A stretch of DNA of 64,000 nucleotides from a virus. The first letter of the stretch is position 1. Every line of letters starts with the position of its first letter. The notes under the pieces are model-generated. The model searched no databases. It worked only from the letters and a program-made list of their open reading frames with translations, and had not been told where the DNA came from. Positions 9,131 through 46,209 of this stretch are shown here, in pieces. The DNA lies in IMG/VR virus record IMGVR_UViG_3300020045_010841, positions 1 to 64,000 of that record, one strand, 5' to 3'. Both the position numbers and the translations under genes were made by a program.

Positions 9131-9415
9131 TTATATTTTATTTAAAGCCATATCTATATAATCTTGAATCATTCCCTCATCTCCGAATAAATAGTCAGAT
9201 AATATCTCTCTTATTCCTTCTTCGTCTTCCTGCTTATTTATGTCTTGAATATGATCGTTGATTCCTATTACTTGGTGCTCATCATCAGTAAATTCTTTAT
9301 CTCCTTCTAATACATGTTCTAGACCTCTTTTTAATACTGAAAGCCTATCTGGTTTATTTACTTTTACTTCAGTAATAATACCAGCTAATTGTTGTAGTCG
9401 TTTTATTTCGTTCAT
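9131..9415 (-). CDS. Small acidic protein: RLQQLAGI leader plus a KVNKP module
   Basis: Starts MNEIKRLQQLAGIITEVKVNKP; TAATG overlap with the upstream gene. Confidence 0.8.
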   Translation of the reverse strand: MNEIKRLQQLAGIITEVKVNKPDRLSVLKRGLEHVLEGDKEFTDDEHQVIGINDHIQDINKQEDEEGIREILSDYLFGDEGMIQDYIDMALNKI

Positions 9416-14247: not shown

Positions 14248-14862
14248 TTATCTTAAACAACATATACCAGTAGCATTACATACTATTTCTGATATTAGTT
14301 CGTTTATTTTAGTATATTTAGTATTAACTTGTGGAACATAATTTTCATTTAATCCAATAGGTTTTACAAATGCTCCCTGCGTAGATGGTTCTGATACTAT
14401 GTCAAAGCAAACTAACGAAAGATCGTCTTGTACTTCAACAGTACCTTCACCTAAGTTTTGAACTGAACCCATTGCTCTTGATGATATCCCTATTTCAACT
14501 CCACCTTTAACTAATGCTTTAACTATATTACCAGAAGGCGTATCTAATATAAGTAATTTAGCTCTTACATCATCTCCATCCCACCACACTTCAGTTATTC
14601 TGTGACAGACGTTTTTCAAATTTATTATTTGACTGTCTGGATGGTCTAATTCCCCGGTTGCTCTATTTTCAGCAACGGGCCCTTGGCTATATCGTTCGAT
14701 TTCTTTCATCAAAACCTCTTTCGGATAAACCCTTCCATTTTGATTTTTAGCGTCTGCTCTTTGAATAATACCTTCCAAAACTAAATCACCACCACTTTTA
14801 ATACTTTCAAGTAATGACTGTCTATCTAATTTTAGAGGAAAATGTTCTACTAATAATTGCAT
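14248..14862 (-). CDS. gp21: Prohead core protease, T4 gp21-like
   Basis: NQNGRVYP, GELDHP, ILDTPSG, GISSRAMGS, FDIVSEPS motifs. Confidence 0.95.
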   Translation of the reverse strand: MQLLVEHFPLKLDRQSLLESIKSGGDLVLEGIIQRADAKNQNGRVYPKEVLMKEIERYSQGPVAENRATGELDHPDSQIINLKNVCHRITEVWWDGDDVRAKLLILDTPSGNIVKALVKGGVEIGISSRAMGSVQNLGEGTVEVQDDLSLVCFDIVSEPSTQGAFVKPIGLNENYVPQVNTKYTKINELISEIVCNATGICCLR

Positions 14863-17829: not shown

Positions 17830-18094
17830 TTGTTTTAACTAAAATATCAAAAATTAATTCATTAGCATCATTTTCATCAAACCCATAATCTATCAAAAGA
17901 TAAATTAAGTCTTTATATTTTTTTATATCCTCCAAATCATGAGCAAATCCATTATACTGCCCAGGCTCTTGATAAAATTCTTCTTGATTTCTAAGTATTT
18001 CTCCTTTAAGAACATCAAAAGGAACTTGTCTGAAATTTGTTGGGTTATTTATTTTAATTTCAGCAATTAACTGCATCCTTTTAACTTGGTCCAT
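17822..18094 (-). CDS. Small acidic KINNP-module protein
   Basis: Starts MDQVKRMQLIAEIKINNP, a shortened leader. Confidence 0.75.
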   Translation of the reverse strand: MDQVKRMQLIAEIKINNPTNFRQVPFDVLKGEILRNQEEFYQEPGQYNGFAHDLEDIKKYKDLIYLLIDYGFDENDANELIFDILVKTNE

Positions 18095-18960: not shown

Positions 18961-20889
18961 TTAGTCTATTTCGTTTTCCGGTAAAATATTACTTATATCT
19001 AATAAATTACTTTCTTCAAATAATTTTATTTTACGTGGAGGAAACATACTTTTAAGTGATTTCTCATTTTGTAGATATACAGCTTGAGCCACTTCTAATT
19101 TAAGTGCTCCTCCTTTTAAAGGTGGATTTAAATCAGTTACTTTTTCTTCCCCATCATCTTTCATACCCATACTACCTAATCTATCTTTACCTAATGCAGA
19201 ATTTTGTGTTCCGATATCAGACGCCTTTTCTTCTGGTCTCCCCAACACAGCATCAGGAATTTCTGTAGATCTTTCATCATATCCTTTTGGAACTTCTCTA
19301 TGTCCTTTATTACTACCCAATGCAACTAATTGATGTGGTGTACCGAATGCTTCTCCAGTATCTGCAGGATCATTTCCTTCATTCTCGATTTGATTAATTC
19401 TAAATTTACGTTTTGTATCTTCAATGATTAAATCTCTATATTCTTCATATTGTGTTTGAGAGAAGTTATAAACATGATCATATACCCAATCAGAAGGCAA
19501 TAATTTATTATCTAATATAGTTACAGCTAAGTCAGTTTTTTCTTTTAATAATGAAATTCTTTCTTGGTCGTATATAATTGATGGTGGGGTAAGAGATAAT
19601 TGGAAATTTGTTAATGCGTCTCCATCATATCCTTGAGCATATAAATGGACAATAGCAATTCTAGTTAATTCCGATACTATTATGCGTTGTATTCTTTCAA
19701 CACTACGTGCAAAACGAATATCTTCAGATGCTAATGTGCTTTTACCACTTAAATCTTTTTCATATCCTAAATAAGCTTTAGGTACTCTTAATGCGGCAAA
19801 TAATTTATCTTTCAGGTAATTAATATCATCCATTGCCATATATTCAAGACCTTTTGTTGTCTCGATTTTAGTGGAGGTATCATTACCACGAACAGGTATG
19901 TAGAAGTCTTCTAATATATTTTGAACATTAAATTTTAAATTGTAGTCTCCTGTTTTTGGATCAGTATATGGAGTTTTTTTCATCTTATTGATGGTTTTCT
20001 GCATAAATTGTTCCACTTCATTAGGAGGTATATTACCAACATTAATAAAGAATGTTCTTTTTTCAGGAGCTCTAACAATACGATGTATTAACATCGCATC
20101 TTCCATTAATTGAAGTTGTTTAAATATTTTACGAGCGGGCTCAAGATGGCTTCTTCCGTATGGAAGATAATTATAATCACTTAATAGACGGAAATGAGAT
20201 ATTTCGTAATTTTCGAATGTAATTTTTTTAGAACCAGCTCCCGCCATTAATTGTTGATGACCTAGTGGGGATTGTTGTGATGAAAATGTTGGGTCGTATA
20301 CGAATTTTACTTCTTGAGGGTTTAATGGGTCTTCACCTTCTGTTCTAATCATAGTATATGATGAGAAAGGTATTACATTATATACGCCGAATTTTTCACT
20401 TATTTCTAATTTAAGATAAAAATCACCATATTTACACATATTTCTAGTCCAAGACCATAAATTATATTCAATATTTAATATATCATAAAATAAATTATAT
20501 AGTAATTTTTGAACAGTATCATCTGAGCTTCGTATTTGTAATATTTCACCAAAGTCGTTTCTTAAACCAACCTCATCTGCAATAATATCTAATGCAGAGG
20601 CAATAATAGCATCTGTGTCCATTGCCTCATAATCAGTATATAATTGTATACGAGATGTAGGTAATGAATTTATATTTGCATATGCATTTCTACCAGATGT
20701 AGTATATACTTTATTATATTTATCATATAATGAGTTAGTTGCTAATTCACCATTAGCCTGTATTTTATTTACATCGACTACTTTTAGTTGGTTTTGGCCT
20801 GTGTTATGAAGAATAACATCAGTCGAAAATAACTTTTGTATTTTAGAAAAGAATGTGCTATTAATTTGTGGATTTTGATTGTCGTCCAT
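18961..20889 (-). CDS. gp20: Portal protein, T4 gp20-like
   Basis: YGRSHLE.ARK, EDAMLIHRIVRAPEKR.F.INVGN, EDFYIPVR, ALRVPKAYL motifs. Confidence 0.95.
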   Translation of the reverse strand: MDDNQNPQINSTFFSKIQKLFSTDVILHNTGQNQLKVVDVNKIQANGELATNSLYDKYNKVYTTSGRNAYANINSLPTSRIQLYTDYEAMDTDAIIASALDIIADEVGLRNDFGEILQIRSSDDTVQKLLYNLFYDILNIEYNLWSWTRNMCKYGDFYLKLEISEKFGVYNVIPFSSYTMIRTEGEDPLNPQEVKFVYDPTFSSQQSPLGHQQLMAGAGSKKITFENYEISHFRLLSDYNYLPYGRSHLEPARKIFKQLQLMEDAMLIHRIVRAPEKRTFFINVGNIPPNEVEQFMQKTINKMKKTPYTDPKTGDYNLKFNVQNILEDFYIPVRGNDTSTKIETTKGLEYMAMDDINYLKDKLFAALRVPKAYLGYEKDLSGKSTLASEDIRFARSVERIQRIIVSELTRIAIVHLYAQGYDGDALTNFQLSLTPPSIIYDQERISLLKEKTDLAVTILDNKLLPSDWVYDHVYNFSQTQYEEYRDLIIEDTKRKFRINQIENEGNDPADTGEAFGTPHQLVALGSNKGHREVPKGYDERSTEIPDAVLGRPEEKASDIGTQNSALGKDRLGSMGMKDDGEEKVTDLNPPLKGGALKLEVAQAVYLQNEKSLKSMFPPRKIKLFEESNLLDISNILPENEID

Positions 20890-20906: not shown

Positions 20907-21227
20907 TTATTTTATAATATCATATTCTCTTAACCATTCTGTAAAAGAATCAAGATTTCCCTCCCAACTATCTTCCCATTCCGTGTCTAACCACAATTTT
21001 ATATCATCTTTAGTAAAGGGATTTTTTAATCCTTTTGTCATCTGTATAGCATCTGCTGTATCTTCTCCAAATTCATCCCTCAAGTCATCATAATCAATTT
21101 TTCCTTTAGATAATTTTTTATGATAAGGTATTACCCATTCTTGAAATTTATATAATTCATTTGGATTATTTATCTTTACTTCGGCAATTATTCCAGCTAA
21201 TTGTTGTAATCTTTTTATTTCGTTCAT
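20907..21227 (-). CDS. Small protein: RLQQLAGI leader plus a KINNP module
   Basis: Starts MNEIKRLQQLAGIIAEVKINNP; lies between terminase and portal. Confidence 0.8.
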   Translation of the reverse strand: MNEIKRLQQLAGIIAEVKINNPNELYKFQEWVIPYHKKLSKGKIDYDDLRDEFGEDTADAIQMTKGLKNPFTKDDIKLWLDTEWEDSWEGNLDSFTEWLREYDIIK

Positions 21228-21240
21228 ATTCTAATAATTA

Positions 21241-22851
21241 TTAACCTAATAACCAATCAAGTGATTCGATTCCGCCCCTTCCATCATCCATTTTGTATGG
21301 ATTCTCCATATATGGATTTCCATACACGGCAGGAGAGGCATAATTTATATTTTGCATACTATTTAATACAGCTCGGGACAGTTCTTCACTTTGTTTTTGA
21401 TACATTAATGTTGTTTCTCTCAAAAATAAAAATATACCAATAGGCATTACTAAGTCATCATTGTGTCCTTGTTGTGCTTGTGGTCTACCATTTTTATATA
21501 TGAACGTTCTTATTTCTTCCATTGATCGTTTAGATAATATCTCAACCGAATACTCGTTCATATACGAAATTAATTTTAAGACAACAAGTGGTCTCGTCTT
21601 TAAGGTCATAGAAAATCCAGCAACCATACCTTGTCCACTATTGTACTTAGATAAATATTGAGATGAATCTCCCATGTTATCCATTTTCGGGGAATAGTAT
21701 ATATTTTTATATTCTTTATCTATTAATCTACCTAATACATCCCATCCTATAGAAGCATTTTCGACAACACACAAAGCATTGTTCCATTCAACACAAGCAG
21801 CATGTATTATGTTAGCAAAATCTTTTGTTGATACTTGAGATTGGAATTCAGCTACTTGTCTGCATGCTTCAATATCAAAAACATGGAAAGTAGAATAATC
21901 CGCCCCATCTCCACGAGCAACATCCGCAATTAAAGCATATGAACGAGAATAATCAGGCATTTCCCATAACCAATATTCTCCATTTATTCCTCTTCGTTCT
22001 AATGGTTCTCTTGCTATGTTTTTTACATAATAATTTAATACATCTGTTTCAATAACAGACTCACCTGAAGTAATAAAATCTGCATCACATTCTTGCGCGG
22101 CAGCTTTAACTCCCAATTCTCTATCTTGTTTATTTCTCCATTCTTGATCTCGTTCTGGATGAACGGTCCAAGGTAATAATAGTGGGATAAAGTTGTTTTT
22201 CTTTTCTTGGGCTCTAGTAAATTCTCTATAAAACCAATTCCCGGTTCCATTTGGTGATGATAGGGCGACACAATGGCCCCCAGTAGCCAGAGTTTGTTGG
22301 GCACCAGTAAATATATCATCAATTCGTTCGATAAATGCGGCCTCATCTATTACAAGCAAAGTAACGGCTTCTGAACGCGCCGCATTATCTGTTGCTGCTT
22401 TAGCTTGTACTTGAGAACCATTTACTAATTTAAGAAGTAATTTATTATTTTCGGTATGTTTTAATCTCATCCAAGATGGGAGTTGATCATATGAAAATCG
22501 TACTTTAGTAATTAAGTTTTTTGCAGTATCTTGTGTAGTAGCAATTACAAGTATGTTTTTATCCTTATGGAAAATCATTAACCATAGTGAGAAAGCAGAA
22601 ACTAGGGTTGATATACCTAGTTGTCGTGACTTATTTATAATTAAATAATCTCCTTTTTGAAATTGTTTTAATACTGCTTCTTGGAATGGATATAAATTAA
22701 ATAACATTCGACCCTTAGTCGGGTGTTGAATGTAATAGTACTTTCTGCAGAAGTAAATAGGGTCTTGAGCACATTTAATGTATTCAGACTTGACGATATC
22801 TTTAAAAGATGGTGATATTGTACCCGGAGTTAATGGGGTTTGTTCTACCAT
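21241..22851 (-). CDS. gp17: Terminase large subunit, T4 gp17-like
   Basis: KSRQLGIST Walker A, LLVIDEAAF Walker B, SSPNG, ADVARGDGADYS and HNDDLVM nuclease motifs. Confidence 0.97.
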   Translation of the reverse strand: MVEQTPLTPGTISPSFKDIVKSEYIKCAQDPIYFCRKYYYIQHPTKGRMLFNLYPFQEAVLKQFQKGDYLIINKSRQLGISTLVSAFSLWLMIFHKDKNILVIATTQDTAKNLITKVRFSYDQLPSWMRLKHTENNKLLLKLVNGSQVQAKAATDNAARSEAVTLLVIDEAAFIERIDDIFTGAQQTLATGGHCVALSSPNGTGNWFYREFTRAQEKKNNFIPLLLPWTVHPERDQEWRNKQDRELGVKAAAQECDADFITSGESVIETDVLNYYVKNIAREPLERRGINGEYWLWEMPDYSRSYALIADVARGDGADYSTFHVFDIEACRQVAEFQSQVSTKDFANIIHAACVEWNNALCVVENASIGWDVLGRLIDKEYKNIYYSPKMDNMGDSSQYLSKYNSGQGMVAGFSMTLKTRPLVVLKLISYMNEYSVEILSKRSMEEIRTFIYKNGRPQAQQGHNDDLVMPIGIFLFLRETTLMYQKQSEELSRAVLNSMQNINYASPAVYGNPYMENPYKMDDGRGGIESLDWLLG

Positions 22852-26593: not shown

Positions 26594-28831
26594 TTATCTT
26601 ATTCCTGCTCTATTTTGCAGTCGTTCACGCATGAATTGTTCTTTGAATGTTTCTTTTACTTCATTAATTAATTTCACATCTTCCTTTCGAACGACCAAAT
26701 GTCTACTTCTTAAACCCATTTCTACTTTAGCATGATTTCCAAAATACTTAACAATTTCTTCAAAATTTTTTCCATCATCATAGAAACTAAAATCGTATGT
26801 TATATTATCATCTCCGAAATAGGCATTAATTTTATCTCCATTCTTTAATATAATATAAGGCAATATTTCATCATTATATACTATTGGTTTTGTAGGATTA
26901 TTTACTTTTACTTCTTTTATTTCTTTTTTCGGCGGTGCTAACTCACTTATATCAAATATTCTTCTTGGATCATTATCTATATTTGGATAACCTAATTGTA
27001 ATGGTTGATCACCAACATTATATTTATCTCCTGCTATATCTTTTTTAACTACTTTATTATTTTCATCTACAAGTACCCATTTATCATAACTATATTCATC
27101 ATTTGTTAATGGTAGAAGAATTAATTTACGTCCATTATCGTTTATAATATAAGGCAATGCATATAATAAGGTGCTATATTTTTCGTTCCCATCTACTTGT
27201 TCAGCCAAATGAATAATCACTTTTCTATCTTCAGGAGATAAAGTATTCCATTGTTTAGCTGTCATTGGTTTTGGAGTAACATCTTGAACTGGCATATCAG
27301 CCATATTTTCTAATTGTTCATCATCTAAACCAAAGTTTTTACCAAATTCCCAACTATCAAATAATTTACTATAAACAGAAAATAATGCTTTTAATTTAGG
27401 ATCTTTAATATATTTTGCTGCGTCTGCGGGCAAATAATCGAAATTTTTTATTTGATCTTGTACGTATTTTTCTGTAGCTTGTGGACCAAAATACTTATCA
27501 ATATATTCATAATTTAAATTATCATCAAAAGTAGCTAAATATTTTTGTTTAGCTTCTTCATCTAAATATTTTACATAAGGAAGTGGTATAGGTTCTTTTT
27601 CATAATTAGTATGTCTGAAACGGAATACCGCATATCTTTTAGCCAATCCTTCATTGTCTTTTAAATCTGCGTACGGGAATTTTTGACCATAATTTATGGC
27701 TAAGTTTTTTAATTCTTTGTCTAATATTTTTAATATTTCAGGTGATAAAGAACCTGCATTAGCTTGAACGTAATTTTGTTTATCTTCATAATCTAATTCA
27801 CGGAAATCATTTGCAGATAATCTTTTACCACGCATAGCAGCACCAGATATTTCTGCTTTAGAAGGAGCAACAAATTTAAATACGTCTTTTAATCCACCTA
27901 TTCTACTCCACACGGATGGAGCTATTTTAGCTAATTCTTCCCACTTTTTAAAATTTTTATCACCACTATTCTTTGCATCTGTAATCCAATATTGATTACC
28001 TCCTTCACCAACATGAATTACGAAGGCGTGGTAAGGATCAGATTCAGGTAAATTGCGATCAAACACGAAATAGAACATACGGTTAGTACCTTCCATAAAA
28101 CGATATCTATCATACATCGTATTAGAAGGTTGTGCAATACACCAACCATATTTTTTACGACCACCTTCTGTTGGGTTATAAGATATACATTTATGTTGTG
28201 CATCACCTTTATATATTTCTATACCATCTTTATCATATACTTTATCTGCATCTGTAGTAGCGGTATTTTGTTCTTCATCGCCAACTTTAGCTTGCATAGG
28301 AAATAAAGCATCCAACATGTGTTCCATTTGACCAAAATCCCAAGTGCGTGGGTCAAGATATGCGTCGTTCGGAATCAATCTTTTGGGTACTAATTTTTGT
28401 ACTTCTTGAGCACTATAATGTCCGTCTTCTGTACCATTAGATAAAGCATATTTAATATTACGTCTATTATTCATAAAACGAATAACGTAAGATGTTACAT
28501 CCCCTTTATCCATACGTTCTTTTTCAACGAACATTTGGATGGCATCTTTTTTTATCTTATCTTCCTTTTCAGGCAAGGAACGAAGTAAAGTAACCATGTC
28601 ATTCCAAGAATATTTATCTATATTAAGATAATTATTACCTTGTTTTAATTCATCAGATAATGCTATTTGTTGTAGTTTAGAGGATAAACCTGATTTAATT
28701 TGGTCAAAACGTTGTATTACTTGTCTTGCAAGATTGTCGTCGATAGAGGGAGTTAATTTCTTCCATCTATCAATTGTAGTTTGAATAGTCTTGTCACTAT
28801 ATTCTAAAATTAGTATGTCTGTTAATTTCAT
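26594..28831 (-). CDS. Large putative internal head protein with a PcfJ-like WC domain, a KVNNP module and a C-terminal RLQNRAGI
   Basis: KYGWCIA..NTMYDRY..FYFVFD segment; IKEVKVNNP at ~26895-26914. Confidence 0.65.
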   Translation of the reverse strand: MKLTDILILEYSDKTIQTTIDRWKKLTPSIDDNLARQVIQRFDQIKSGLSSKLQQIALSDELKQGNNYLNIDKYSWNDMVTLLRSLPEKEDKIKKDAIQMFVEKERMDKGDVTSYVIRFMNNRRNIKYALSNGTEDGHYSAQEVQKLVPKRLIPNDAYLDPRTWDFGQMEHMLDALFPMQAKVGDEEQNTATTDADKVYDKDGIEIYKGDAQHKCISYNPTEGGRKKYGWCIAQPSNTMYDRYRFMEGTNRMFYFVFDRNLPESDPYHAFVIHVGEGGNQYWITDAKNSGDKNFKKWEELAKIAPSVWSRIGGLKDVFKFVAPSKAEISGAAMRGKRLSANDFRELDYEDKQNYVQANAGSLSPEILKILDKELKNLAINYGQKFPYADLKDNEGLAKRYAVFRFRHTNYEKEPIPLPYVKYLDEEAKQKYLATFDDNLNYEYIDKYFGPQATEKYVQDQIKNFDYLPADAAKYIKDPKLKALFSVYSKLFDSWEFGKNFGLDDEQLENMADMPVQDVTPKPMTAKQWNTLSPEDRKVIIHLAEQVDGNEKYSTLLYALPYIINDNGRKLILLPLTNDEYSYDKWVLVDENNKVVKKDIAGDKYNVGDQPLQLGYPNIDNDPRRIFDISELAPPKKEIKEVKVNNPTKPIVYNDEILPYIILKNGDKINAYFGDDNITYDFSFYDDGKNFEEIVKYFGNHAKVEMGLRSRHLVVRKEDVKLINEVKETFKEQFMRERLQNRAGIR

Positions 28832-30780
28832 TATTTTAAATAATATATAAATACTTTTACTTTTGAAGTACCTTTAGGTACTTGAACTCTTTCTACCTGA
28901 TCTATTTTTCTAATAGTATTAGCTATTTGATCAACACCATAATAACCTAATTTATTAACTATAGCGTCTACTACTTGACCTTCTGTTATATTAGGATTAG
29001 CTTTTAAACAATTTATAATTGTAGTTTGGAGATTATTTCCTTTTTCAAATGGTTTTAATCTGTAATCAGGATTATACCTTCTAGATGGATTATTTATTTT
29101 TATTTCATCAATTCCTTCTTTATCATAAGTATCATCTTTAATATCTTGAGCAATTTCTTTTAATACTTGATTTACCCATCTCTTTTCTTGACTAGTCAAA
29201 GTTTCATTAATTGCATTTTCTATGAATTCTAAAAAATCATCATCTTCTAACTGATATATTTCAGCAAAGAAGTGTTCACGAATACGAGGGTCATTGTATT
29301 GTGAATCAGCAAATATATCATTTAATGCTTCATATATGTGTTGACCCAGACGTATATCCATAGGCTCGTTTGCTAGTGTATCTACTTTATTTACTACAGC
29401 TTGATTGGATTCTTTATCACCTTTAAAACCCTGTAATGAAACTAATTCATATAATCCTTTAATTATTTCATGGACTAACATAGGGAAATTAATTGCACGA
29501 GCTCGAATTGTTATACCGGAATCTTGTTGTTCGTTTATTTCTTCTTCATTTATAGGTTTTATCCAACCATTTTTTAAATAATGATCTTTACCAACACGCA
29601 TATTATTATTCTCTTTTGTTTTAAATAATAAACGTTTGTGATCTCCAGGTTGTATTTCTTTTTCAAATTCTAAGACTTCACCCTTAACATTATATTTTTT
29701 ACCTGGGATTAAATTTATTGGGTTATTTATTTTTACTTCATTTATAATCACCTTACTACTACCTCCAGCGGTCTTACCTCCTTGAGCTAGTTGTGATAAC
29801 ATTAAAACGATGGCGTTATCATCGTCATAGACACCAAATGAATTTTTCATTATTTCATTATACTTATCTATTAAAGATGGATCAATTGCGTCTAAATAAT
29901 CTTTAAATAAATAGAATGAGAATGCACCTTTTAATGCTGCACCTTGGGTAAGGCTATTTATTATTCGTCTTCTACCTTCGGGACTAATTCCTTCATCTAA
30001 TTGTATAGAATATTTATCAGCGTCTGAATTAGTTAGAAATAAAAATTTACTTTTATCTCCAAACATATTAACAGGATATGAACCTTTATATTCGTCCCAA
30101 TCAGGTTTGAAACCCTTTTTTTGTAATAATGAACTAACTGAGTTTAATTGTTCTAAATTATTAATATTAATCGGAAATGTTGTAGTAGTTTTTGGATTAT
30201 TTATTTTTACTTCATTTAAATGACCAGGTAATTGATAAAACTGGTATTTTCCGTCTATCATTTTAACCCTGCCCACTTCTTTACTTCTAGATTCTTTAGG
30301 ATCTAATAAATTAATCATTGCCCAAAAGTCATCAGGTGACATTCGAGGATTATAATTACCATCCTTAGTTAATTTCTCTATAGTTTTTTGTTTTGCAATT
30401 TCCATAGAACCTACTATTTCAATAGGTTCAGCATACGGATATGAACCATGATAGAAAGATAATAAATATTTTTGATTTGGTTTATTTACCTTTACTTCAT
30501 CCAATTCTCTCCCTACTTCACTCATTGGAACTATTCGTGCATCCAAAGTTATACCCTCATCTTCAATAATTGGATATAATTTTTCAACCATTTCTTTAGC
30601 TAATTCTTGGAGTTGGTCTTTATATGGTGCTTCTGCTTTTTCAATTTCACCTAACAAACGTTGGGATGAAATCATGGTTTGCATCAAAGATTTATCACCA
30701 AGCATTTTTTTAAGGTTTGCTTGACTTGACTTATTTAATTTAGCCAATGTTTCAGGGCGAAATATATCTTCGTATTTCAT
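28831..30780 (-). CDS. Putative head protein carrying four KVN/KIN modules
   Basis: Core segments RRIINSLTQGA and IRARAINFPMLVHEIIKGLYE; tags at ~30479, 30194, 29720, 29087. Confidence 0.75.
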   Translation of the reverse strand: MKYEDIFRPETLAKLNKSSQANLKKMLGDKSLMQTMISSQRLLGEIEKAEAPYKDQLQELAKEMVEKLYPIIEDEGITLDARIVPMSEVGRELDEVKVNKPNQKYLLSFYHGSYPYAEPIEIVGSMEIAKQKTIEKLTKDGNYNPRMSPDDFWAMINLLDPKESRSKEVGRVKMIDGKYQFYQLPGHLNEVKINNPKTTTTFPININNLEQLNSVSSLLQKKGFKPDWDEYKGSYPVNMFGDKSKFLFLTNSDADKYSIQLDEGISPEGRRRIINSLTQGAALKGAFSFYLFKDYLDAIDPSLIDKYNEIMKNSFGVYDDDNAIVLMLSQLAQGGKTAGGSSKVIINEVKINNPINLIPGKKYNVKGEVLEFEKEIQPGDHKRLLFKTKENNNMRVGKDHYLKNGWIKPINEEEINEQQDSGITIRARAINFPMLVHEIIKGLYELVSLQGFKGDKESNQAVVNKVDTLANEPMDIRLGQHIYEALNDIFADSQYNDPRIREHFFAEIYQLEDDDFLEFIENAINETLTSQEKRWVNQVLKEIAQDIKDDTYDKEGIDEIKINNPSRRYNPDYRLKPFEKGNNLQTTIINCLKANPNITEGQVVDAIVNKLGYYGVDQIANTIRKIDQVERVQVPKGTSKVKVFIYYLK

Positions 30781-35717: not shown

Positions 35718-35926
35718 AATTTTTTAATTTCTTTTTCTACATTATCATAATAATCGCATAAATCATAATATCCTTCAGTATAATAACCAACTACTTTTCT
35801 AATTTCATTAACACAAATTAACGCACTTTGACGTGCGTCTTCTTTTGTATTATGATCTGATAAATGTGATAATGTTTCGTTATAGAAACGATCAAATATG
35901 CGTTGTGCTTCTAATTTATAATCCAT
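35714..35926 (-). CDS. Hypothetical protein
   Basis: Coupled ORF; ARQSALICVNEI...YYDNVEKEIKKL. Confidence 0.7.
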   Translation of the reverse strand: MDYKLEAQRIFDRFYNETLSHLSDHNTKEDARQSALICVNEIRKVVGYYTEGYYDLCDYYDNVEKEIKKL

Positions 35927-37131
35927 TATTTCTTACTATCATATAAATTGTTCATGTACTTTCCTGAGAATTTGGAATCTTGCGTACGTAATACAATTCC
36001 TTCCACCATATTTTCTTTAAAATATCCTTCACATTCCTCTTCAATTTCTTGTCTTGAATTGAATTCTTTATTAAATATTTCTTTTACCATAGGAAATTCC
36101 ATAGCTTCGCAAACATATTTTAATAATTTATATGGACATTTTTCGGCAATGCCTTGACTGTTAATACTATCTGCTCCAAAGAATTTAATATTTGGTTTTT
36201 CTTTACTAGCTGGGTTATGTTTATTACCTGATCCTTTCAAATTACCACCATTTAATTCTCCTCTTAAAACCACATTAGTATATTCTCTTTGCAATTCATT
36301 TAAATATGGCTTACCATAAACAATAAAGTCAGAATCATTTTCTACTAAATTATATAAATTTAAATCAGGTTTAGTCCAAAATAATAATTTTTCTAATAGT
36401 GTTTTAGTACGTCTTCCAACATGTTTTTTAACCAAAAGATCTAATTGTTGATTACGAGAACAAATAAAACCTTTTCCATTCTTAATACCAATAGTAATAC
36501 TTGATCCATCTACTTTTTCAGTACCGACTAAAGTAATTGGATAACCAATTTTATTTTCAATATGACCCCAAAGATTATTAATATTGGTTTCATCTGTTTT
36601 ATATAGCCCTTCAGGGAATACTCGTGAACCACCTACTTTATTACCCGCTTTATCTTTAACTTCAGGTTCTTCCCATTTTGTAATACCAAGTAATTCTGTT
36701 AAATCTAATTGATAAAAATGAATAAGTAAATTATCATCTGTATAATCATTTTTCCAAATATAATCAGCTACGTCTTTTCTTGGTAATAAAATTCCATTAC
36801 TATAAACAGGATCAATGCTTCCCTCACGTGAAAAATTGAATTTTTTAGCTCTAATACGTAATGGTACTCCCTCAACTTTACCTAACATACTTTTAGTTAC
36901 ATCCCCGTTTGGACGTAAAAAAGATTCGAATAAAGGAATATCCGAAAGGTTAAAGTCCGGTTGAATATAAACTGCTTTATCCCCTACTTGATATAAATCT
37001 TTGCCAGATACAAGGGTAAACCCGTTTTCTTCAAGTTCAATTAATTCAATTCGTTCTGCTGCTTCTCCATTTTTAAATAATGGACTTTTTTGTTTAATTG
37101 TAACGATGCTTACTGCTTGTTGTTGTTCCAT
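35926..37131 (-). CDS. ATP-dependent RNA ligase, DRB0094/Rnl2-like
   Basis: TEKVDGSS motif I, CSRN, RGELNG, EGIVLR motif IV; N-terminal AERIEL..YQVGDKAVYIQPD domain. Confidence 0.88.
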   Translation of the reverse strand: MEQQQAVSIVTIKQKSPLFKNGEAAERIELIELEENGFTLVSGKDLYQVGDKAVYIQPDFNLSDIPLFESFLRPNGDVTKSMLGKVEGVPLRIRAKKFNFSREGSIDPVYSNGILLPRKDVADYIWKNDYTDDNLLIHFYQLDLTELLGITKWEEPEVKDKAGNKVGGSRVFPEGLYKTDETNINNLWGHIENKIGYPITLVGTEKVDGSSITIGIKNGKGFICSRNQQLDLLVKKHVGRRTKTLLEKLLFWTKPDLNLYNLVENDSDFIVYGKPYLNELQREYTNVVLRGELNGGNLKGSGNKHNPASKEKPNIKFFGADSINSQGIAEKCPYKLLKYVCEAMEFPMVKEIFNKEFNSRQEIEEECEGYFKENMVEGIVLRTQDSKFSGKYMNNLYDSKK

Positions 37132-39064: not shown

Positions 39065-39643
39065 TTACAGGGATATTTGTTTTTGTTGTTTTATTTGTTC
39101 TTTAACTTTTTTAACATATTCATAGTCAATCGAGCCGCCTATCCATTTCTCTTTATCACCGTTTTCTGCAAATGTAGAATCTCCTAATGAATTAACATAT
39201 TCATCTAACACACCTTCAAAGTTAGTTAAGTGTTGATTTTTATTCAAATTCATTATATTGCGTTCATATTCTTCGTATTTGCCTTCTAATTTTAATTTTG
39301 TTTCCATTTCCGTGACACAATTAAAACAGGTACCATGAATATGATACATTTTTTTATTTAAATCAGTTAATTGAAAATGATTACCACAGCAAGGGCATTT
39401 TAGTGGGAATTTTGATGCTTGTTTTAGTGCATCAAATTTCGTTATTGTTTGTTTAATTCCATTCTTAATAGTCCATTTCTTCCCACCTTCTTCCCATTCA
39501 TCACCTTCAACATGTTCTACTTCTTGTTTTGAGTAACCAGTTTGGATTGATGTAGCATCACCATATCGTTTTTCAATAATATTTCGAATACGGGACAGAT
39601 CTTTCTCTTTGAATTCTTTTTTAAGTTGTGTATCTTGGCTCAT
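39065..39643 (-). CDS. Hypothetical protein with a zinc ribbon
   Basis: EGDEWEEGGKKWTIKNGIKQ, CPCC...CFNC. Confidence 0.7.
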   Translation of the reverse strand: MSQDTQLKKEFKEKDLSRIRNIIEKRYGDATSIQTGYSKQEVEHVEGDEWEEGGKKWTIKNGIKQTITKFDALKQASKFPLKCPCCGNHFQLTDLNKKMYHIHGTCFNCVTEMETKLKLEGKYEEYERNIMNLNKNQHLTNFEGVLDEYVNSLGDSTFAENGDKEKWIGGSIDYEYVKKVKEQIKQQKQISL

Positions 39644-39804
39644 TAAAAAGATTTTGTTTTTTCTATTACTTGTCTTATAATATCTTTTCGTTCTTGTTCT
39701 GAAATGGATTTGTTTCTTTTAATAACATAATTGTCTATGTCTTTTTGTATGTTTTTAAACATTATATTATCTTTAGCTTTTTTGTTGGGGTTATTTACTT
39801 TCAT
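39643..39804 (-). CDS. Mini-ORF starting MKVNNP (53 aa)
   Basis: Hand translation MKVNNPNKKAKDNIMFKNIQKDIDNYVIKRNKSISEQERKDIIRQVIEKTKSF; ATGA and TAATG overlaps with both neighbours. Confidence 0.75.
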   Translation of the reverse strand: MKVNNPNKKAKDNIMFKNIQKDIDNYVIKRNKSISEQERKDIIRQVIEKTKSF

Positions 39805-40337
39805 ATTCCCATTTTTTTTAATTCAAGAATAGTTGCTTCTGTATCACCTGTATATAAAATCCCAATACCATTTCGAGCACGCCAACTTAATATAGTATCT
39901 TCTCTATCGTCTATTAATATTTTATTTGGACCGGCCAATTCAGGTTTTTCATGGGCTTGTTTAAATATAATAGGATAATCACCTAAATTATCTTCAACCC
40001 ATAATTTTTTACCTTCTACTGATACATCATTTCTCGATGGAGCAGTAAGGAGTGTTGGATTATTATTTTTAATATAATCCCACAATTCATGACCTTGGGG
40101 CATCCAAGACATACCTCTGAAAAATCTTATTCCAACCTGATCATCTATTAATTCCCAAAATTTTTGAATTCCTATTTTAGGACCAAATTCTCTTTCTGCT
40201 CTATATTTATATTCTTCTGGAGTTAAACCACTGAAATGCTCAAATCTTTTTTCAAAATCACATAATACACCATCCATATCGCAGTATATTTGGTATTGAT
40301 CACTCATGCCTTCATTTAACAACTCATTTAAATTCAT
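39801..40337 (-). CDS. HAD-superfamily 5'(3')-deoxyribonucleotidase-like phosphatase
   Basis: IYCDMDGVLCDF, LLTAP, GKKLW and ILIDDR motifs. Confidence 0.88.
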   Translation of the reverse strand: MNLNELLNEGMSDQYQIYCDMDGVLCDFEKRFEHFSGLTPEEYKYRAEREFGPKIGIQKFWELIDDQVGIRFFRGMSWMPQGHELWDYIKNNNPTLLTAPSRNDVSVEGKKLWVEDNLGDYPIIFKQAHEKPELAGPNKILIDDREDTILSWRARNGIGILYTGDTEATILELKKMGI

Positions 40338-40351
40338 ATAACTTATTTTTA

Positions 40352-43255
40352 TTATTCAAATATCTCTTTATTTTCTCTACTAAATTTACGCATCATAGTA
40401 CCAGCGGTAGAGTTAGCTTCGTTCTCCCATTCATCGCCATCTTTACCAGCCCCAAGCTCTAATCTATCTTCTAAATCTTGTTTCAAATGGACCATTTCAT
40501 GGAACATACTACGAGTAATATCAGCTAAATTACGATTATTAGTAACTACTCTTATGCTTTTATCATGGGGAGAATAACCACCAAAAGATGAATATTCTTT
40601 AGTATACTCGGGATTATTAATTAATATAATATTAGGTTTTGGAACATCCAAATATTCCATAGCATATTTTACTGCTTTATCTAAAATAGGAGCATGTTGT
40701 TTTTGAAATACTTCTTTTAATCCTTCTGGAGTTGATTTTTTAATTCTACCTTGAATTTTATCCCAATCAATTACATGACTTTCATAATTTGGACTCAAAA
40801 AATGAGCATAATCCCAAGGACCTGATGGGAGTTCTTTTTGAAATCGACCCATGTATTTTCCTTTTACCCAATCATCTGTTCCAAACTCATCTACAAGGTA
40901 TTCTTTTCCTATTATAGGAACATTAGGTTTATTTACTTTTATTTCGCCCAACGTTTGTTTTAATGATTCTTTAATAACTTCTTCTACATCATTATAGGGT
41001 TCAATATTAGGTAAAATATCTGAAATATATTGTTCCACATTTATTTCTTTACCTTTGTATTGTGATTTAATTTGGGGGTATTTTTCTTGTAAATGTTGTA
41101 TAATTTTTAATACACGAGTATTATCACCTACTTTATCTAAAAATACAACAATTTCTTTTATATAATTTTGTGCATTAGGAATTTCTGTTTTAGTACCTAA
41201 ATTAACTCGCTCTTCCGCTTCATCTAAATGAGAATTGTTAGTTGTTTTTGTATTAATAACATTTCCATAATAGGAGAATGGTTGGATTTTGAAATTTTGA
41301 GATAATTTATTCCCATCTATTGTAATTCTAGCTAATGAACCAGTTACTTTTGGATCTTTTTTCCATAAATCCTTGTTTCTAGTCATTGAGAAATAATTAA
41401 CATCTTCTATTCCTTTATCTTTATAATCAGATTCTTTTTTCCTAAATGAACGAAAGTCAGGACTATATTTATCAACTTCTGTTTTAGAAGACTTAAAAAC
41501 ATTATCATATAATATACCTTGCAATCCATTATAGCTAGTAAAATGATATAAATCCCCATAATTTTTAGCTTCATCTATATGAGCAGGAGTTCGTTTCTCC
41601 ATCCCATTTGCTATATTAATTAATTGAGGAAGTGTATTTGTTTCTTTTATTCTCTCATAAAAGCGCGGAATGTTATCAGTCATCATATCATACCCAAATT
41701 TTTCTAAAATATCACTAAATTCAACTTGATTTTTAACAGAATGAATTAAATCTTCAAAATCTTGGTAAGGAATTATACCAGGCTTATTAACTTTTATTTC
41801 TTCTATACTAGCTAATTTATCGTAATATTTAGGATCTTCATAAATATGATCCATAGCTATTTCTTTTGCAACAGCTCGAGAAGTAGTATGTTCCATTTCA
41901 ACTTTTATTCCCTTAAATAATTGTGATGATAATTTAGATTTAGTTGTTGAGTGTTTTTTAGCTAAATCATCTAATGTCATACCAGAAGATAAACCACCGG
42001 GTATTTTTTCTTCATTTAAATCTAGTTTAACTTTAGATAAATCAACGCTTGACATAAGTGATGTTATTTCCTTAGTATAGTGTTTTATCTCTTTTGATAC
42101 TTCTGAAGTTGGGAGGCTCATAGATTCAGGAACACCCATAGGATTATTTTTTCCTAGATATATAACATTATTTGATATTCTTTCATTTTGAAAATACAAC
42201 TCCCCTTCATATAAATCTTCATCAAGTTTGTTAGGTGATTTAAATAATAAAGGTTTTGATGGATTATTTACTTTTACTTCATTCATATCTTCCTCAGGTT
42301 GAGCCCAAAATCTTTTTTCATATCCTGGTTCTAATAATAAAACAATTGGGTACCATTTTTTGTCATTCCATATTGTCTCAGTATCATTAATCAATGAACC
42401 ATCAAACCAGGTGTATCCATCTTTTTCAAGAATATTAAAATATCTTATTCCATTTTGTAAATCTTTTATATGGAGAGGGAATTTAATAGTTGGATTATTT
42501 ACTTTTACTTCATTTAAATCAGTAATAGCTAATAATTTATTTGATTTTTTATATAATATAATTTTTGAAGGAAAATCATAAAGTTCTGGTGTTTCTCCAT
42601 ATAACCATTTATATCCTAATAATTCTATTTTTTCTTTTATTTTATACCAATCATTAATATCATTTAATGTTATAGGAAATTCAATATTATTTGGATTATT
42701 TACTTTTACTTCATGTAATTGAAAATTTAATAAAAATTCATTTACTGTTATTCCTTCTGGTATTAACGATTTTATTGCTAATCTATTTCGTTTAGCTATT
42801 GCTTCACGCAAGGAAGTTGCAGATAAATTTTCATAATTACCGGCATCTATTATATCAACATTAAAATACTTTTCTCTATTTTCATTTATAGAATTAAATC
42901 TATCTTGTTCCCCTTTACCATATACTACAAGATAATTTTGAGATTTATCTTTAACTATGTTATATATTTCTGTTATGGGGGATTTGGATTCAGATATAGA
43001 AATTATTACATTTTGGGGTAAAACCTTTTTATATTGATTCCATACTTTTAATAATACTTCAGGAGTATATCCTTCACGTATATTATTTGAAATAATAATA
43101 TGAACGGAATCAGCAACTAAAGAAGCACGTCGAACAACTTCGACGTGACCTTTATGTGGAGGAGAAAACGATCCTGGGAAAAGTGCAACTAGTGGGGCAT
43201 TTTCTGCTATTAATTTATTTGATATTTTTTCTCCTATTTGTGTTCCTAAATCCAT
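40352..43255 (-). CDS. 967 aa polyprotein: HxGH nucleotidyltransferase, five KVN modules, DUF5661-like domain, ADP-ribosyltransferase-like domain and HExxH peptidase-like domain
   Basis: FPGSFSPPHKGH; GIKVEMEHT..IAMDH..EDPKYY; LYHFTS...FSMTR...EAEERV; FHEMVH..Q...ENEAN. Confidence 0.8.
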   Translation of the reverse strand: MDLGTQIGEKISNKLIAENAPLVALFPGSFSPPHKGHVEVVRRASLVADSVHIIISNNIREGYTPEVLLKVWNQYKKVLPQNVIISISESKSPITEIYNIVKDKSQNYLVVYGKGEQDRFNSINENREKYFNVDIIDAGNYENLSATSLREAIAKRNRLAIKSLIPEGITVNEFLLNFQLHEVKVNNPNNIEFPITLNDINDWYKIKEKIELLGYKWLYGETPELYDFPSKIILYKKSNKLLAITDLNEVKVNNPTIKFPLHIKDLQNGIRYFNILEKDGYTWFDGSLINDTETIWNDKKWYPIVLLLEPGYEKRFWAQPEEDMNEVKVNNPSKPLLFKSPNKLDEDLYEGELYFQNERISNNVIYLGKNNPMGVPESMSLPTSEVSKEIKHYTKEITSLMSSVDLSKVKLDLNEEKIPGGLSSGMTLDDLAKKHSTTKSKLSSQLFKGIKVEMEHTTSRAVAKEIAMDHIYEDPKYYDKLASIEEIKVNKPGIIPYQDFEDLIHSVKNQVEFSDILEKFGYDMMTDNIPRFYERIKETNTLPQLINIANGMEKRTPAHIDEAKNYGDLYHFTSYNGLQGILYDNVFKSSKTEVDKYSPDFRSFRKKESDYKDKGIEDVNYFSMTRNKDLWKKDPKVTGSLARITIDGNKLSQNFKIQPFSYYGNVINTKTTNNSHLDEAEERVNLGTKTEIPNAQNYIKEIVVFLDKVGDNTRVLKIIQHLQEKYPQIKSQYKGKEINVEQYISDILPNIEPYNDVEEVIKESLKQTLGEIKVNKPNVPIIGKEYLVDEFGTDDWVKGKYMGRFQKELPSGPWDYAHFLSPNYESHVIDWDKIQGRIKKSTPEGLKEVFQKQHAPILDKAVKYAMEYLDVPKPNIILINNPEYTKEYSSFGGYSPHDKSIRVVTNNRNLADITRSMFHEMVHLKQDLEDRLELGAGKDGDEWENEANSTAGTMMRKFSRENKEIFE

Positions 43256-43956
43256 TCTTTTATATGTAATTTTATATCATCAATTTCTATACTATTTTGT
43301 GATAAGAAATTTTTTAATTTTGTTAATTCAAGCCATTTAAAATCTACATTTTCACAAATTTCATTAAATTTTTTCTCTTTAATAAGTATTTGTTCCACTG
43401 TATATTCTGTTATTTCTTTTCGGAAAGTAGATGGATATTCTTTATAATCTTTTTCTAAATAATTAACCAAACAATCATATTCTAATAATATTGTTCCTTC
43501 TTCCTCAGTATATTCTGTCTCGTACACATAAATATTATCTTTTCCAAACATATTTATATAATCGTCTATTTGTGAATATACTTTTAACCACAAATCTAAT
43601 AGTACTTGTTTTGGCAAACGTCTTTCACGAGAAAAATTGCGTTTAAACGCAATAATTGGATTACAATATACTATCACGGCTTTAAATTGATATTGTTTAC
43701 TATCAATGGTTTTACGCAGAGTATTTAGGTTAGCACCGGTGGTATCTAATATAAAATTTCTTTTATCTCCCATTAATGAGGGTAAATATTCATCATAAAT
43801 ATATTTAGCAGCTTTTAATGGATTATTATAACAGCTACTTAATTTTTCCTCTACTAATAAATCTGGATTAACAATATCGTACCATATATTTAATTCTTTA
43901 ATTAATGTGCTTTTACCTGATGCAGGCGCTCCTAATATTATTATACCTTTATTCAT
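43246..43956 (-). CDS. P-loop kinase, zeta-toxin / AAA_33-like
   Basis: GAPASGKST, VNPD, ILDTTG and RNFSRER motifs. Confidence 0.8.
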   Translation of the reverse strand: MNKGIIILGAPASGKSTLIKELNIWYDIVNPDLLVEEKLSSCYNNPLKAAKYIYDEYLPSLMGDKRNFILDTTGANLNTLRKTIDSKQYQFKAVIVYCNPIIAFKRNFSRERRLPKQVLLDLWLKVYSQIDDYINMFGKDNIYVYETEYTEEEGTILLEYDCLVNYLEKDYKEYPSTFRKEITEYTVEQILIKEKKFNEICENVDFKWLELTKLKNFLSQNSIEIDDIKLHIKEWI

Positions 43957-44099
43957 TATATATCGATTAATGAGATATGATCTATTGTTATTATATTAAT
44001 ATTAGTTCTGTAAAAACCATGATCTTTTTTATATTGTCTTAACCATTCTTTTTTATCTAATTCTTTTTTAACCTTAATTATGGGATTATTTACTTTCAT
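43956..44099 (-). CDS. Mini-ORF starting MKVNNP (47 aa)
   Basis: Hand translation MKVNNPIIKVKKELDKKEWLRQYKKDHGFYRTNINIITIDHISLIDI; TAATG overlap with the kinase gene. Confidence 0.7.
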   Translation of the reverse strand: MKVNNPIIKVKKELDKKEWLRQYKKDHGFYRTNINIITIDHISLIDI

Positions 44100-44235
44100 T
44101 TCCTAGATATTTAGAGGGAATACCCGCTATTTTATATAATTCTTCTTTTATATAAGTACCTAATGCAATTCTATTAGATAATTGTTCTAAAGCTAATTTT
44201 TGTTTAGCTATATTTACAGGATTATTTACTTTCAT
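44086..44235 (-). CDS. Mini-ORF starting MKVNNP (49 aa)
   Basis: Hand translation MKVNNPVNIAKQKLALEQLSNRIALGTYIKEELYKIAGIPSKYLGNESK; first ORF after a promoter-like element. Confidence 0.7.
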   Translation of the reverse strand: MKVNNPVNIAKQKLALEQLSNRIALGTYIKEELYKIAGIPSKYLGNESK

Positions 44236-44252: not shown

Positions 44253-44283
44253 GTAAATATACAAAAGGCTTCTTACGAAGCCT
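44253..44283 (-). promoter_or_regulatory. Hairpin/terminator fused to a TGTATATTTAC promoter-like element
   Basis: Minus strand AGGCTTC-GTAA-GAAGCCT-TTTGTATATTTAC. Confidence 0.62.
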
Positions 44284-44297
44284 AATATAGATTTTAA

Positions 44298-45074
44298 TTA
44301 TTGTTTGCGGGAAACCACTGTTGGAAATGAAAAATGTATTGGTTCGCTTTTTGGATTTTCAATATCGAATATAATTCTTAATGCTTTATAAATTTCAATA
44401 TTTTTTTCATGTTTACGATTCGGTTCTATAAGCTCCCATCCCTTACCTTTAATCTTTTTACCTGTTTTATCTTCACCTCTTGAACCTGATTTTAGCCAAA
44501 GTATACCAGTTTTGGCTACTTTCTTTTGGAAACATTCTTCATAACAAGCTTTATATAAGGATGTTTGAATTTCGTATGTTGATACTACTTGATTTGATGT
44601 TTTTAAATCTATAATCCATATTTCTCCATCAATTTCACAAACTATATCACATGTACCAGCAATTTTTAAAACATCAGAGAATAAATGGACTTCTGCTTCT
44701 ATTAAAGTGGGTTTAAATAATTCCCAAAATTCAACAAAATTAAGAAACATTTTCCATATATCTGGAGTGTATAATGGTTGTTGTTTTGAGTCTAAAAAGT
44801 GTAATTCTTCCCCCTTAAGATATCTCTCACATAAATCATGAACTATGGTTCCATCATCTGCCGCGCGTTGGGCTAGTACTTTTGAATTAAAACCATATTT
44901 CATTAACCATTCATCAAAATGTTTTCCTTTAGGATATATTCCTAATACGAAAGTAATTGATGGATAATACTTTCCATGTCGTCTATAATAACGAGAATCT
45001 AAATTCGTTATTTGTAAAGCGTCTTCTGATAATTCTAATAATCTAGTGTATTTTTTATTTTTTAATTTTAACAT
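44298..45074 (-). CDS. PD-(D/E)xK exonuclease
   Basis: YPSITFVL, GTIVH, AGTCD, IIDLKTS and Q..LY motifs. Confidence 0.88.
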   Translation of the reverse strand: MLKLKNKKYTRLLELSEDALQITNLDSRYYRRHGKYYPSITFVLGIYPKGKHFDEWLMKYGFNSKVLAQRAADDGTIVHDLCERYLKGEELHFLDSKQQPLYTPDIWKMFLNFVEFWELFKPTLIEAEVHLFSDVLKIAGTCDIVCEIDGEIWIIDLKTSNQVVSTYEIQTSLYKACYEECFQKKVAKTGILWLKSGSRGEDKTGKKIKGKGWELIEPNRKHEKNIEIYKALRIIFDIENPKSEPIHFSFPTVVSRKQ

Positions 45075-46178: not shown

Positions 46179-46209
46179 GGAAATATACAAAAAGCCTCTT
46201 AAGAGGCCT
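46179..46209 (-). promoter_or_regulatory. Hairpin/terminator fused to a TGTATATTTCC promoter-like element
   Basis: Minus strand AGGCCTCTTAAGAGGCTT-TTTGTATATTTCC. Confidence 0.62.

Follow-up and report, generated by a model that had tools for sequence, protein, structure and literature searches.

In bacteriophage T4, the prohead protease gp21 is described as cutting after the sequence L/I-X-E with very few other determinants, and cargo proteins are described as carrying N-terminal targeting peptides of 10 to 20 residues that are removed at L/I-X-E sites (PMC9026906 and PMC5694885, in the portions available). It is by way of a discarded leader that T4-type phages are known to load exchangeable head proteins. 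The present study concerns a different short peptide, found in the first 64,000 nucleotides (64 kb, here called the window) of the 132,388-bp phage contig IMGVR_UViG_3300020045_010841. Three mini-genes of the window, m1, m2, and m3, begin directly with the hexapeptide MKVNNP, and the same peptide, with Val or Ile in place of Met, recurs inside large proteins directly behind predicted gp21-type cut sites. The balance of the evidence tips slightly toward the view that this header serves both as a handle with a function on the mature protein and as an in-frame joint between protein modules.

The arrangement resembles that of the T4 internal proteins (IPI, IPII, IPIII, and Alt) in its S77 protease, its L/I-x-Glu sites, and its variable, exchangeable cargo genes. 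It also resembles T4 cargo bearing a capsid-targeting sequence (CTS), as far as described in those portions, in that short conserved leaders are placed on unrelated proteins near the head genes. However, the conserved peptide of T4, according to the same portions, precedes the cut and is discarded, whereas the second conserved peptide found here, located after the cut, would stay on the product. Also unlike in T4, the tag punctuates long polyproteins, and the mini-genes are leaderless and start with the product-side peptide.

Two further systems are close. Polyvalent proteins are chains proposed, in the available part of the original description, to be delivered with the DNA and processed into units by an embedded metallopeptidase (Iyer, Burroughs, Anand, de Souza, and Aravind 2017, PMC5512222). 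A 967-amino-acid (aa) neighbor of the mini-genes likewise strings together unrelated domains, the C-terminal one being peptidase-like with an HExxH motif. At least two unrelated effector-type domains, the mark of a polyvalent protein and often accompanied by a zincin-like metallopeptidase, were found in this 967-aa protein and not in the 47- to 53-aa mini-genes, the model of m1 being a single helix. In contrast to the polyvalent proteins, for which no conserved interdomain tag is described in that part of the paper (PMC5512222; the word “linker” is absent from its main text), one fixed header stands here behind a gp21-type site at the joints and also starts free genes of 40 to 80 aa. The mini-genes lack the defining features of both T4 CTS cargo and polyvalent proteins, having no leader and a single domain. 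Promoter-early plus stem-loop (PeSL) cassettes, as presented in the available part of their description, bring about the shuffling of ORFans in the genomes of T4-type phages (Arbiol et al. 2010, PMC2839356). Similarly, m1 lies behind a hairpin and a promoter-like motif, about 28 repeats of which stand before small variable genes, and slot content varies among relatives; the composite of stem-loop and promoter was found for m1 only. Unlike PeSL elements, which that part presents as intergenic regulatory DNA, the joint described here also lies within coding sequence, as six in-frame codons conserved as protein. A body homologous to a module in another context, as expected of a cassette, was found for the “FPI” domain of the related genome G001 and not for the three window mini-genes.

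In the literature searched, as far as its text was available, there is no described conserved peptide that is retained on the product, nor one that both punctuates polyproteins and starts free genes. Should the header act through recognition at a free N terminus, it would represent a new type of short address tag that might also be used for loading proteins into capsids; should it be mainly a recombination joint, it would show how phages transfer small effector domains in frame between genes expressed early and cargo that is injected. In both cases, the free-standing genes allow a clean test, since they have the tag without a cut site and the two functions are thus experimentally separable.

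Distribution of the tag

The source of the contig is an uncultured T4-like phage; the nearest named phages by capsid protein are Flavobacterium phage vB_FspM_immuto (54% identity), Microcystis phage Mel-JY01, and Rhodothermus phage RM378. Two complete relatives, G001 (175 kb) and G002 (180 kb), were compared with it and were about equally distant (median protein identity of 62% and 60%, respectively). Tags were pooled from the contig, G001, and nine related fragments, that is, from two genomes and nine fragments.

The pattern [MVI]K[VI]N[NK]P was matched 70 times in this pool, by 51 internal copies, 18 free-standing copies, and 1 odd copy. All 51 internal copies had Glu at P1, with Leu or Ile at P3 in 44 and with Ile (34), Val (15), or Met (2) at P1'. 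The 18 free-standing copies were the starts of open reading frames (ORFs) of 40 to 80 aa. Hence, 69/70 matches, including the three mini-genes, stood directly at a protein start or after Glu. The odd copy, LLDY/IKVNNP (a slash marks the start of the tag or the predicted cut), lies inside an insertion in the G001 terminase. This large terminase (152859-155639, L044) has 926 aa compared with 536 aa here, with an insertion of ∼360 aa that may be an intein or homing element. Within the window, 22 internal copies with Val or Ile first were found in ten proteins, always in frame, on the coding strand, and after Glu, and degenerate internal copies such as VRVNTP and VKINRP were also present.

An earlier note on this DNA, made from the sequence alone, had pointed to MK[VI]N[NK]P starts as a signature to be looked for in relatives. 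Nine such free-standing genes were found in G001, together with 19 internal tags, and none of either kind was found among the 342 ORFs of G002. The proposal that Met takes the place of the Val or Ile of the internal copies was borne out, and Met was also observed at P1' internally, in LDE/MKVNNP and LNE/MKVNNP of the related contig L117, so that this residue is tolerated there in polyproteins. Methionine is normally retained before Lys, in keeping with the specificity of methionine aminopeptidase. A full-text literature search for tag and leader strings (KVNNP, VKVNNP, IKVNNP, LQQLAG, and QQLAGI) returned no paper.

Reality of the mini-genes

The positions, lengths, and MKVNNP starts that had been given for the three ORFs were confirmed, all on the minus strand (Table 1). 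The pattern ATGAARGTNAAYAAYCC, comprising ATG plus the tag DNA, had three matches in the window and none in any of 100 dinucleotide-preserving shuffles, and MKVNNP was the only hexapeptide common to more than two predicted starts in the contig. Complete divergence behind the hexapeptide, as claimed in the earlier note, was also seen, with tblastn among the three mini-genes giving only tag-driven or insignificant matches. The coupled overlaps with neighbors were found as ATGA at the 39804 start and as TAATG at the 39643 and 43956 stops. In addition, m1 and m2 overlap by 14 nt, with the TAA stop of m1 sitting within the tag DNA of m2. Two further mini-genes, including m4, were found in the contig outside the window (Table 1). 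The ORF directly upstream of m4 (contig 111168-111350) starts with MKVNKN, a possible degenerate header.

The mini-gene bodies are short and rich in lysine and glutamate. With a coding-versus-background codon table, the tag-free bodies of m1, m2, and m3 scored 0.40 to 0.74 per codon (m1, 0.74), compared with 0.355 ± 0.25 for 85 accepted small genes, −0.33 ± 0.19 for off-frame ORFs, and −0.11 ± 0.32 for antisense ORFs. Their frames stayed open in 0.06 to 1.6% of 20,000 shuffles each (m1, 0.8%), and those of the G001 counterparts stayed open in 0.9 to 2.0%. The 53-aa m3 product is already a called protein in a public protein collection, and the 49-aa m1 product is present letter for letter in the ESM Atlas. 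The three ORFs look like real small genes. A search for sequencing runs and proteomes covering the phage turned up no RNA or proteome run, a result neutral as to expression, and one DNA run with 5% of the sequence words. That the ORFs are instead chance frames or decayed polyprotein pieces under no selection is hardly credible: coding scores no lower than the mean for accepted small genes, frames that survived no more than 2% of shuffles in either genome, start/stop coupling to neighbors, and the retention in G001 of slots, starts, and similar lengths at a body identity of 28 to 36% all speak against it. In favor of this rival, the three codons preceding the ATG of m2, read in the m2 frame, are Ile-stop-Glu, which is like a broken I-x-E junction, and the bodies have no relatives in Pfam, PHROGs, and a 5.8-billion-protein collection.

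In those searches, PHROGs and Pfam gave nothing with the mini-proteins save one meaningless match at an E value of 0.045, and the 5.8-billion-protein collection, searched with m3, returned only m3 itself. The ESM Atlas gave no usable neighbor of m1, and with the tag-free bodies as queries, no tblastn match in G002 had an E value below 0.09. An AlphaFold2 (AF2) model of m1 was one long helix spanning residues 6 to 37, with the tag outside the helix.

The tag DNA AAA-GTA-AAT-AAT (for example, at window 44083-44099) has TAA in both other reading frames, so that upstream frames overlapping the tag end inside it, as m1 does in m2. One of these stops arises from GTA, strongly preferred over GTT, at the second Val of the tag.

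Other meanings of the hexapeptide were considered and set aside. A 2A-like skipping motif was rejected, the residue after Pro being variable and NPGP being absent. A programmed frameshift joining m1 to m2 was likewise discarded, since inspection showed no slippery run and both alternative frames of the tag DNA contain stops. An N-glycosylation sequon was rejected by eye, and none of the five mini-proteins ends with a C-terminal YEIY tag.

Conservation of the slots and of the header

Tag-started genes of G001 were found in the same slots as those of the window: a pair separates the nuclease gene from the kinase-like gene, and a single one lies between the NT5C-like and 192-aa genes. In G002, the first slot holds an unrelated, untagged 66-aa ORF, and the second slot is empty, with the flanking genes abutting. 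Neither slot gene was present in more distant relatives. Since G002 holds an unrelated ORF there, the nuclease-kinase slot appears to be a hot spot of small-gene turnover. The 66-aa ORF (21827-22067, L047) lies behind the same kind of hairpin-plus-promoter motif.

The header was compared across four syntenic pairs of contig and G001 genes. One of these is the GTG-started gene, whose G001 orthologue has a body identity of 56% (z, 8.9), both members keeping the tag; in the three window slots, the bodies of the slot-mates are 28 to 36% identical. Header positions 2 to 6 were identical in 18/20 cases, both differences being Val/Ile exchanges, compared with identity at 54 of the 143 aligned body columns. 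By our own arithmetic, 18/20 would be very unlikely at the body rate of 38%. Five synonymous differences were observed in the header codons, and the Pro codon differed in three of the four pairs. The header was thus kept with synonymous changes while the bodies drifted, which suggests that what is constrained is the protein and not the DNA. As judged from these comparisons, the conservation points to protein-level selection on the header of the free-standing genes and not to a decaying relic. The possibility raised in the earlier note, that these genes are remnants under no selection, is contradicted by the header conservation, the codon scores, and the open frames.

Cassettes within the large cargo proteins

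The 967-aa protein is split into modules by five sites of the form [LIM]xE/[VI]KVN[NK]P. To compare modules without the tag, a hidden Markov model (HMM) was derived from a trio of free-standing G001 genes without their tags and was run on 74 tag-stripped modules. Only the first round was used, rounds 2 and 3 of the iterated HMM being contaminated by long modules. Matches were obtained to residues 183 to 249 (E value, 1.3e-8) and 250 to 326 (E value, 1.3e-5) of the 967-aa protein and to a module of a 649-aa protein (E value, 2.2e-4). The FPI domain therefore exists both as free-standing MK[VI]NNP genes and as an internal module. The AF2 model of the first cassette had a mean predicted local distance difference test (pLDDT) value of 82, with values below 50 for tag residues 1 to 5, suggesting that the tag is a flexible overhang outside the fold. 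A Foldseek search with this fold gave no match in the PDB.

Comparison with G002 indicated how the modules are placed. The 967-aa protein matches a 331-aa G002 orthologue at both ends, and G002 reads FQIHE/KK exactly at the site where the 967-aa protein has FQLHE/VKVNNP plus extra modules. Likewise, a 640-aa protein (15907-17829) matches a 217-aa G002 protein, with DLWKE/VKVNKP corresponding to DLWE/ in G002. These alignments show the tagged modules to be insertions into older proteins at preexisting cut-type sites. The inserted modules differ between the contig and G001.

A profile search with the FPI domain, tag included, identified 63 proteins at an E value of ≤0.001 among 1.84 billion representatives. 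Thirty-six of these were short (≤110 aa): 27 started with MK[VI]N[NKD]P, 3 had degenerate tags, 1 had no tag, and the remaining 5 had a leader of 10 or 16 residues ending in Glu, followed by IK[VI]NNP. The other 27 were long proteins with up to nine internal tags. Among GenBank phages, tblastn with a free-standing FPI protein gave no match, and no cultured tag-bearing phage was found there.

Three proteins common to the contig and the tagged G001 had no match in G002, namely, those of 745 aa (26594-28831) and 649 aa (28831-30780) and an RNA-ligase-like protein (35926-37131). The 745-aa protein is 81% identical over 640 aa to its G001 counterpart. In both the 745-aa and the 649-aa protein, variable tagged cassettes stand behind conserved N-terminal parts, and these two proteins could be carriers or readers of the tag.

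Leader and predicted cut site

Several genes start with M.EIKRLQQLAGII[TA]E, a 16-residue cargo leader, followed by the tag (Table 1). This leader resembles the C terminus of the acidic scaffold-like protein, DFVARMQKLAGIKN (13041-14057). A GIY-YIG-like ORF lies between two leader-plus-tag genes in the head region (window 8425-9114). The same leader type was found in the tag-less G002 (..ARMQQLAGIKILNE) and in immuto (..RMQKLAGIITE/SQFN). L-x-E sites that lack the tag abound in the scaffold and in the N-terminal region of the capsid protein. G002 contains no tags, yet it has ..IHE/ and ..LWE/ at the insertion points, and in immuto no tag was found in the 41.6 kb around the head genes. These observations suggest that cutting as such probably does not require the tag and that both the leader and the cut site are older and more widespread than the tag.

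The S77 protease is the likely enzyme for the [LI]xE sites, where cleavage is predicted from the site sequences. An alternative cutter would be the metallopeptidase-like domain of the 967-aa protein, by analogy with the route proposed for polyvalent proteins in the available part of PMC5512222; against this, nine of the ten tagged window proteins have no such domain, and the sites are of the gp21 type. A CTS propeptide ending in L/I-x-Glu is absent from the three mini-genes, with stops 1 to 41 codons upstream and no upstream Met. The free-standing genes are informative precisely because they carry the tag without any cut site.

Promoter-like motif and probable transcription unit

The earlier note had placed two of the three mini-genes right behind a GTATATT-type promoter, and the promoter claim holds, with the motif GTATATTTAC at 44262-44253, 27 nt before the 44235 start. 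It occurs 28 times in the sense and never in the antisense orientation in the whole contig (29 and 0, respectively, in G001), and for most copies the distance to the following start codon is 23 to 47 nt. Nearly every copy stands in front of a small gene within contig 44-130 kb, and the motif is absent before the head genes. It resembles the TAnnTTTG promoter type, or −7 element, of Bacteroidetes. A fuller form is (C/T)GTATATTTAC (for example, at window 44253-44262 and 46179-46188), often with a hairpin or an AT-rich box before it. The hairpin upstream of m1 is kept in G001 with changes on both arms, and a similar one stands at the same place in G002. A second hairpin or promoter motif was found neither between m2 and the kinase gene nor around m3. 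The mini-genes are probably transcribed together with the kinase-like gene and that of the 967-aa protein, in a unit of the small-gene class.

The starts of the mini-genes have no Shine-Dalgarno sequence and lie in A-rich surroundings. This would suit the explanation that ATG-AAA-GTA-AAT-AAT-CC, A-rich and unstructured, is simply a good translation start in a non-Shine-Dalgarno host, its likeness to the tag being secondary. Such an origin appears very improbable: it leaves the 51 internal copies, all after Glu, unexplained, and most other genes of the contig start differently, as do all 342 ORFs of G002.

Possible function of the header

Under the favored reading, the mini-genes would be the free-standing form of a cassette unit that is also strung into large, probably capsid-loaded polyproteins, the unit consisting of the six-residue header [M/V/I]-K-[V/I]-N-[N/K]-P and a small variable body. 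The S77 protease would cut after the Glu of [L/I]-x-Glu, leaving the header as the new N terminus of each released module. In the free-standing genes, ATG or GTG would stand in place of the Val/Ile codon, so that plain translation would give the same N terminus with no leader and no cut. The header would be read alike however its N terminus was made, a component of head loading, retention, or processing being the most plausible reader, and its short, near-identical DNA would double as an in-frame joint for cassette swapping. The idea of the earlier note that the tag may act as a free N-terminal signal, a putative role, gains from the evidence of protein-level selection and from the probable dispensability of the tag for cutting. 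A stronger form of this reading appears possible but doubtful, namely, that the head-loading or ejection machinery recognizes the hexapeptide as a genuine address of the mature end on a free or flexible N terminus, be it created by protease or by start codon, that the phage could load the leaderless mini-proteins into the capsid, and that the codons serve as an in-frame joint for shuttling between “expressed early” and “pre-packed and injected” forms.

Several observations weigh against the header as a functional handle. No candidate reader of the tag was identified in the analysis, and no relatives of the bodies of m1, m2, and m3 were detected among the internal modules. The count of tagged starts among the short FPI proteins (27/36) is biased upward because the search profile contained the tag. 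When the 63 proteins were rescored with a tag-free profile, only 6 reached at least 36 bits, of which 5 were tagged, 4 of these being close to the queries; a tag-free alignment search found only four proteins, three of them from the queries' own clusters, and was no substitute for the biased profile. The promoter class is that of the small-gene regions and not of the head genes, which suits a role in the cytoplasm no less than it does capsid loading. For the m2 and m3 bodies and their G001 slot-mates, 22/300 and 13/300 shuffles, respectively, reached the observed score, so homology is not demonstrable, and the body of m4 is unrelated to that of the tag gene in the same slot of L079 (51/300 shuffles). 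Since the slot-mate bodies are not demonstrably homologous, the header conservation could partly reflect repeated replacement at a DNA joint and not lasting selection on a single gene. The Val codons at position 3 of the tag are GTA in 18 cases and GTT in 1, compared with 48:41 genome-wide, a skew that may point to an effect on the DNA level or to a recent common origin of the copies.

Much of this bears on a rather unlikely rival in which the header has no free-N-terminus function and is a prime-side part of the protease site plus DNA microhomology for cassette recombination, with the free genes being repeatedly excised or exchanged. Unrelated or barely related bodies behind the same tag in the same slot (m2 and m3 versus G001 and m4 versus L079) and the skew toward GTA count in its favor. 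So does the DNA identity between the contig and G001, which is high through the hairpin, the promoter motif, and the ATG-plus-tag and then collapses. Many inserted cassettes occur only in tagged lineages, G002 being without tags and these cassettes, and short-motif recombination is documented in T4-type phages in the form of PeSL cassettes (PMC2839356, available part). Body replacement at a fixed joint may also be occurring. However, the header codons differ synonymously in the syntenic pairs, and the Pro codon follows genome usage, which argues that amino acids rather than bases are kept. Moreover, the GTG-started gene and its G001 counterpart are true orthologues and are both tagged, and at least 27 free-standing clusters, each less than 50% identical to the others, keep the tag.

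The mini-proteins might also be product-like decoys or regulators that occupy a header-recognizing site, for example, delaying or tuning processing. They have the exact product-side sequence without the scissile bond, their promoter class differs from that of the head genes, and in the models the header is a flexible overhang that would be free to bind. This role seems improbable, given that the header alone would suffice for it and that nothing links the mini-genes to the protease gene; there are, furthermore, five different bodies in the contig and nine in G001, many of them of a folded domain family also used as cargo.

Genomic context

Nearly all genes of the contig (G+C content, 29%) are carried on the minus strand. 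The coordinates of the mini-genes, the cargo protein and its cassettes, and the head genes are given in Table 1.

Table 1. Features of the window and contig discussed in the text (window coordinates unless stated otherwise)
Feature	Coordinates	Strand	Remarks
m1	44086..44235	−	49 aa, start MKVNNP; first gene behind the promoter-like motif
m2	43956..44099	−	47 aa, start MKVNNP; own stop overlaps next start (TAATG)
m3	39643..39804	−	53 aa, start MKVNNP; between NT5C-like gene (ATGA) and 192-aa gene (TAATG)
m4 (fourth mini-gene)	contig 110977-111171, outside window		ATG start, 64 aa
Fifth mini-gene	contig 129430-129552, outside window		GTG start, 40 aa; overlaps upstream stop as GTGA
G001 slot-mates of m1, m2, and m3			m1, MKINNP gene; m2, MKVNNP gene, 48 aa; m3, MKVNNP gene, 47 aa; assigned by synteny
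967-aa polyvalent-type protein	40352..43255	−	Cytidylyltransferase/NMNAT-like N terminus (CTP_transf_like), DUF5661, C-terminal HEMVH motif
Internal FPI cassette 1	42509..42709	−	Tag plus small FPI domain; residues 183-249 of 967-aa protein; FPI free-standing in G001
Internal FPI cassette 2	42278..42508	−	Residues 250-326 of 967-aa protein
P-loop kinase-like gene	43246..43956	−	Follows m2, probably in the same transcription unit
Promoter-like motif GTATATTTAC	44253..44262	−	27 nt before m1 start, just after hairpin
Terminator-like hairpin AGGCTTC-GTAA-GAAGCCT	44266..44283	−	Upstream of m1
PD-(D/E)XK nuclease gene	44298..45074	−	Upstream of slot; synteny anchor
Leader-bearing N termini	7068-7931, 9131-9415, 17822-18094, 20907-21227		
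Gp23-type major capsid protein	11398-13026		
Acidic scaffold-like protein	13041-14057	−	C terminus DFVARMQKLAGIKN
Prohead protease, T4 gp21 family	14248-14862	−	Pfam Peptidase_S77, E value 2.9e-32; PHROG head maturation protease
Portal protein	18961-20889		
Large terminase	21241-22851		536 aa

Outside the window, at contig 125942-127869, two ORFs of 539 and 101 aa were observed whose starts are chaperonin-like (GroEL/GroES type), as judged by eye only.

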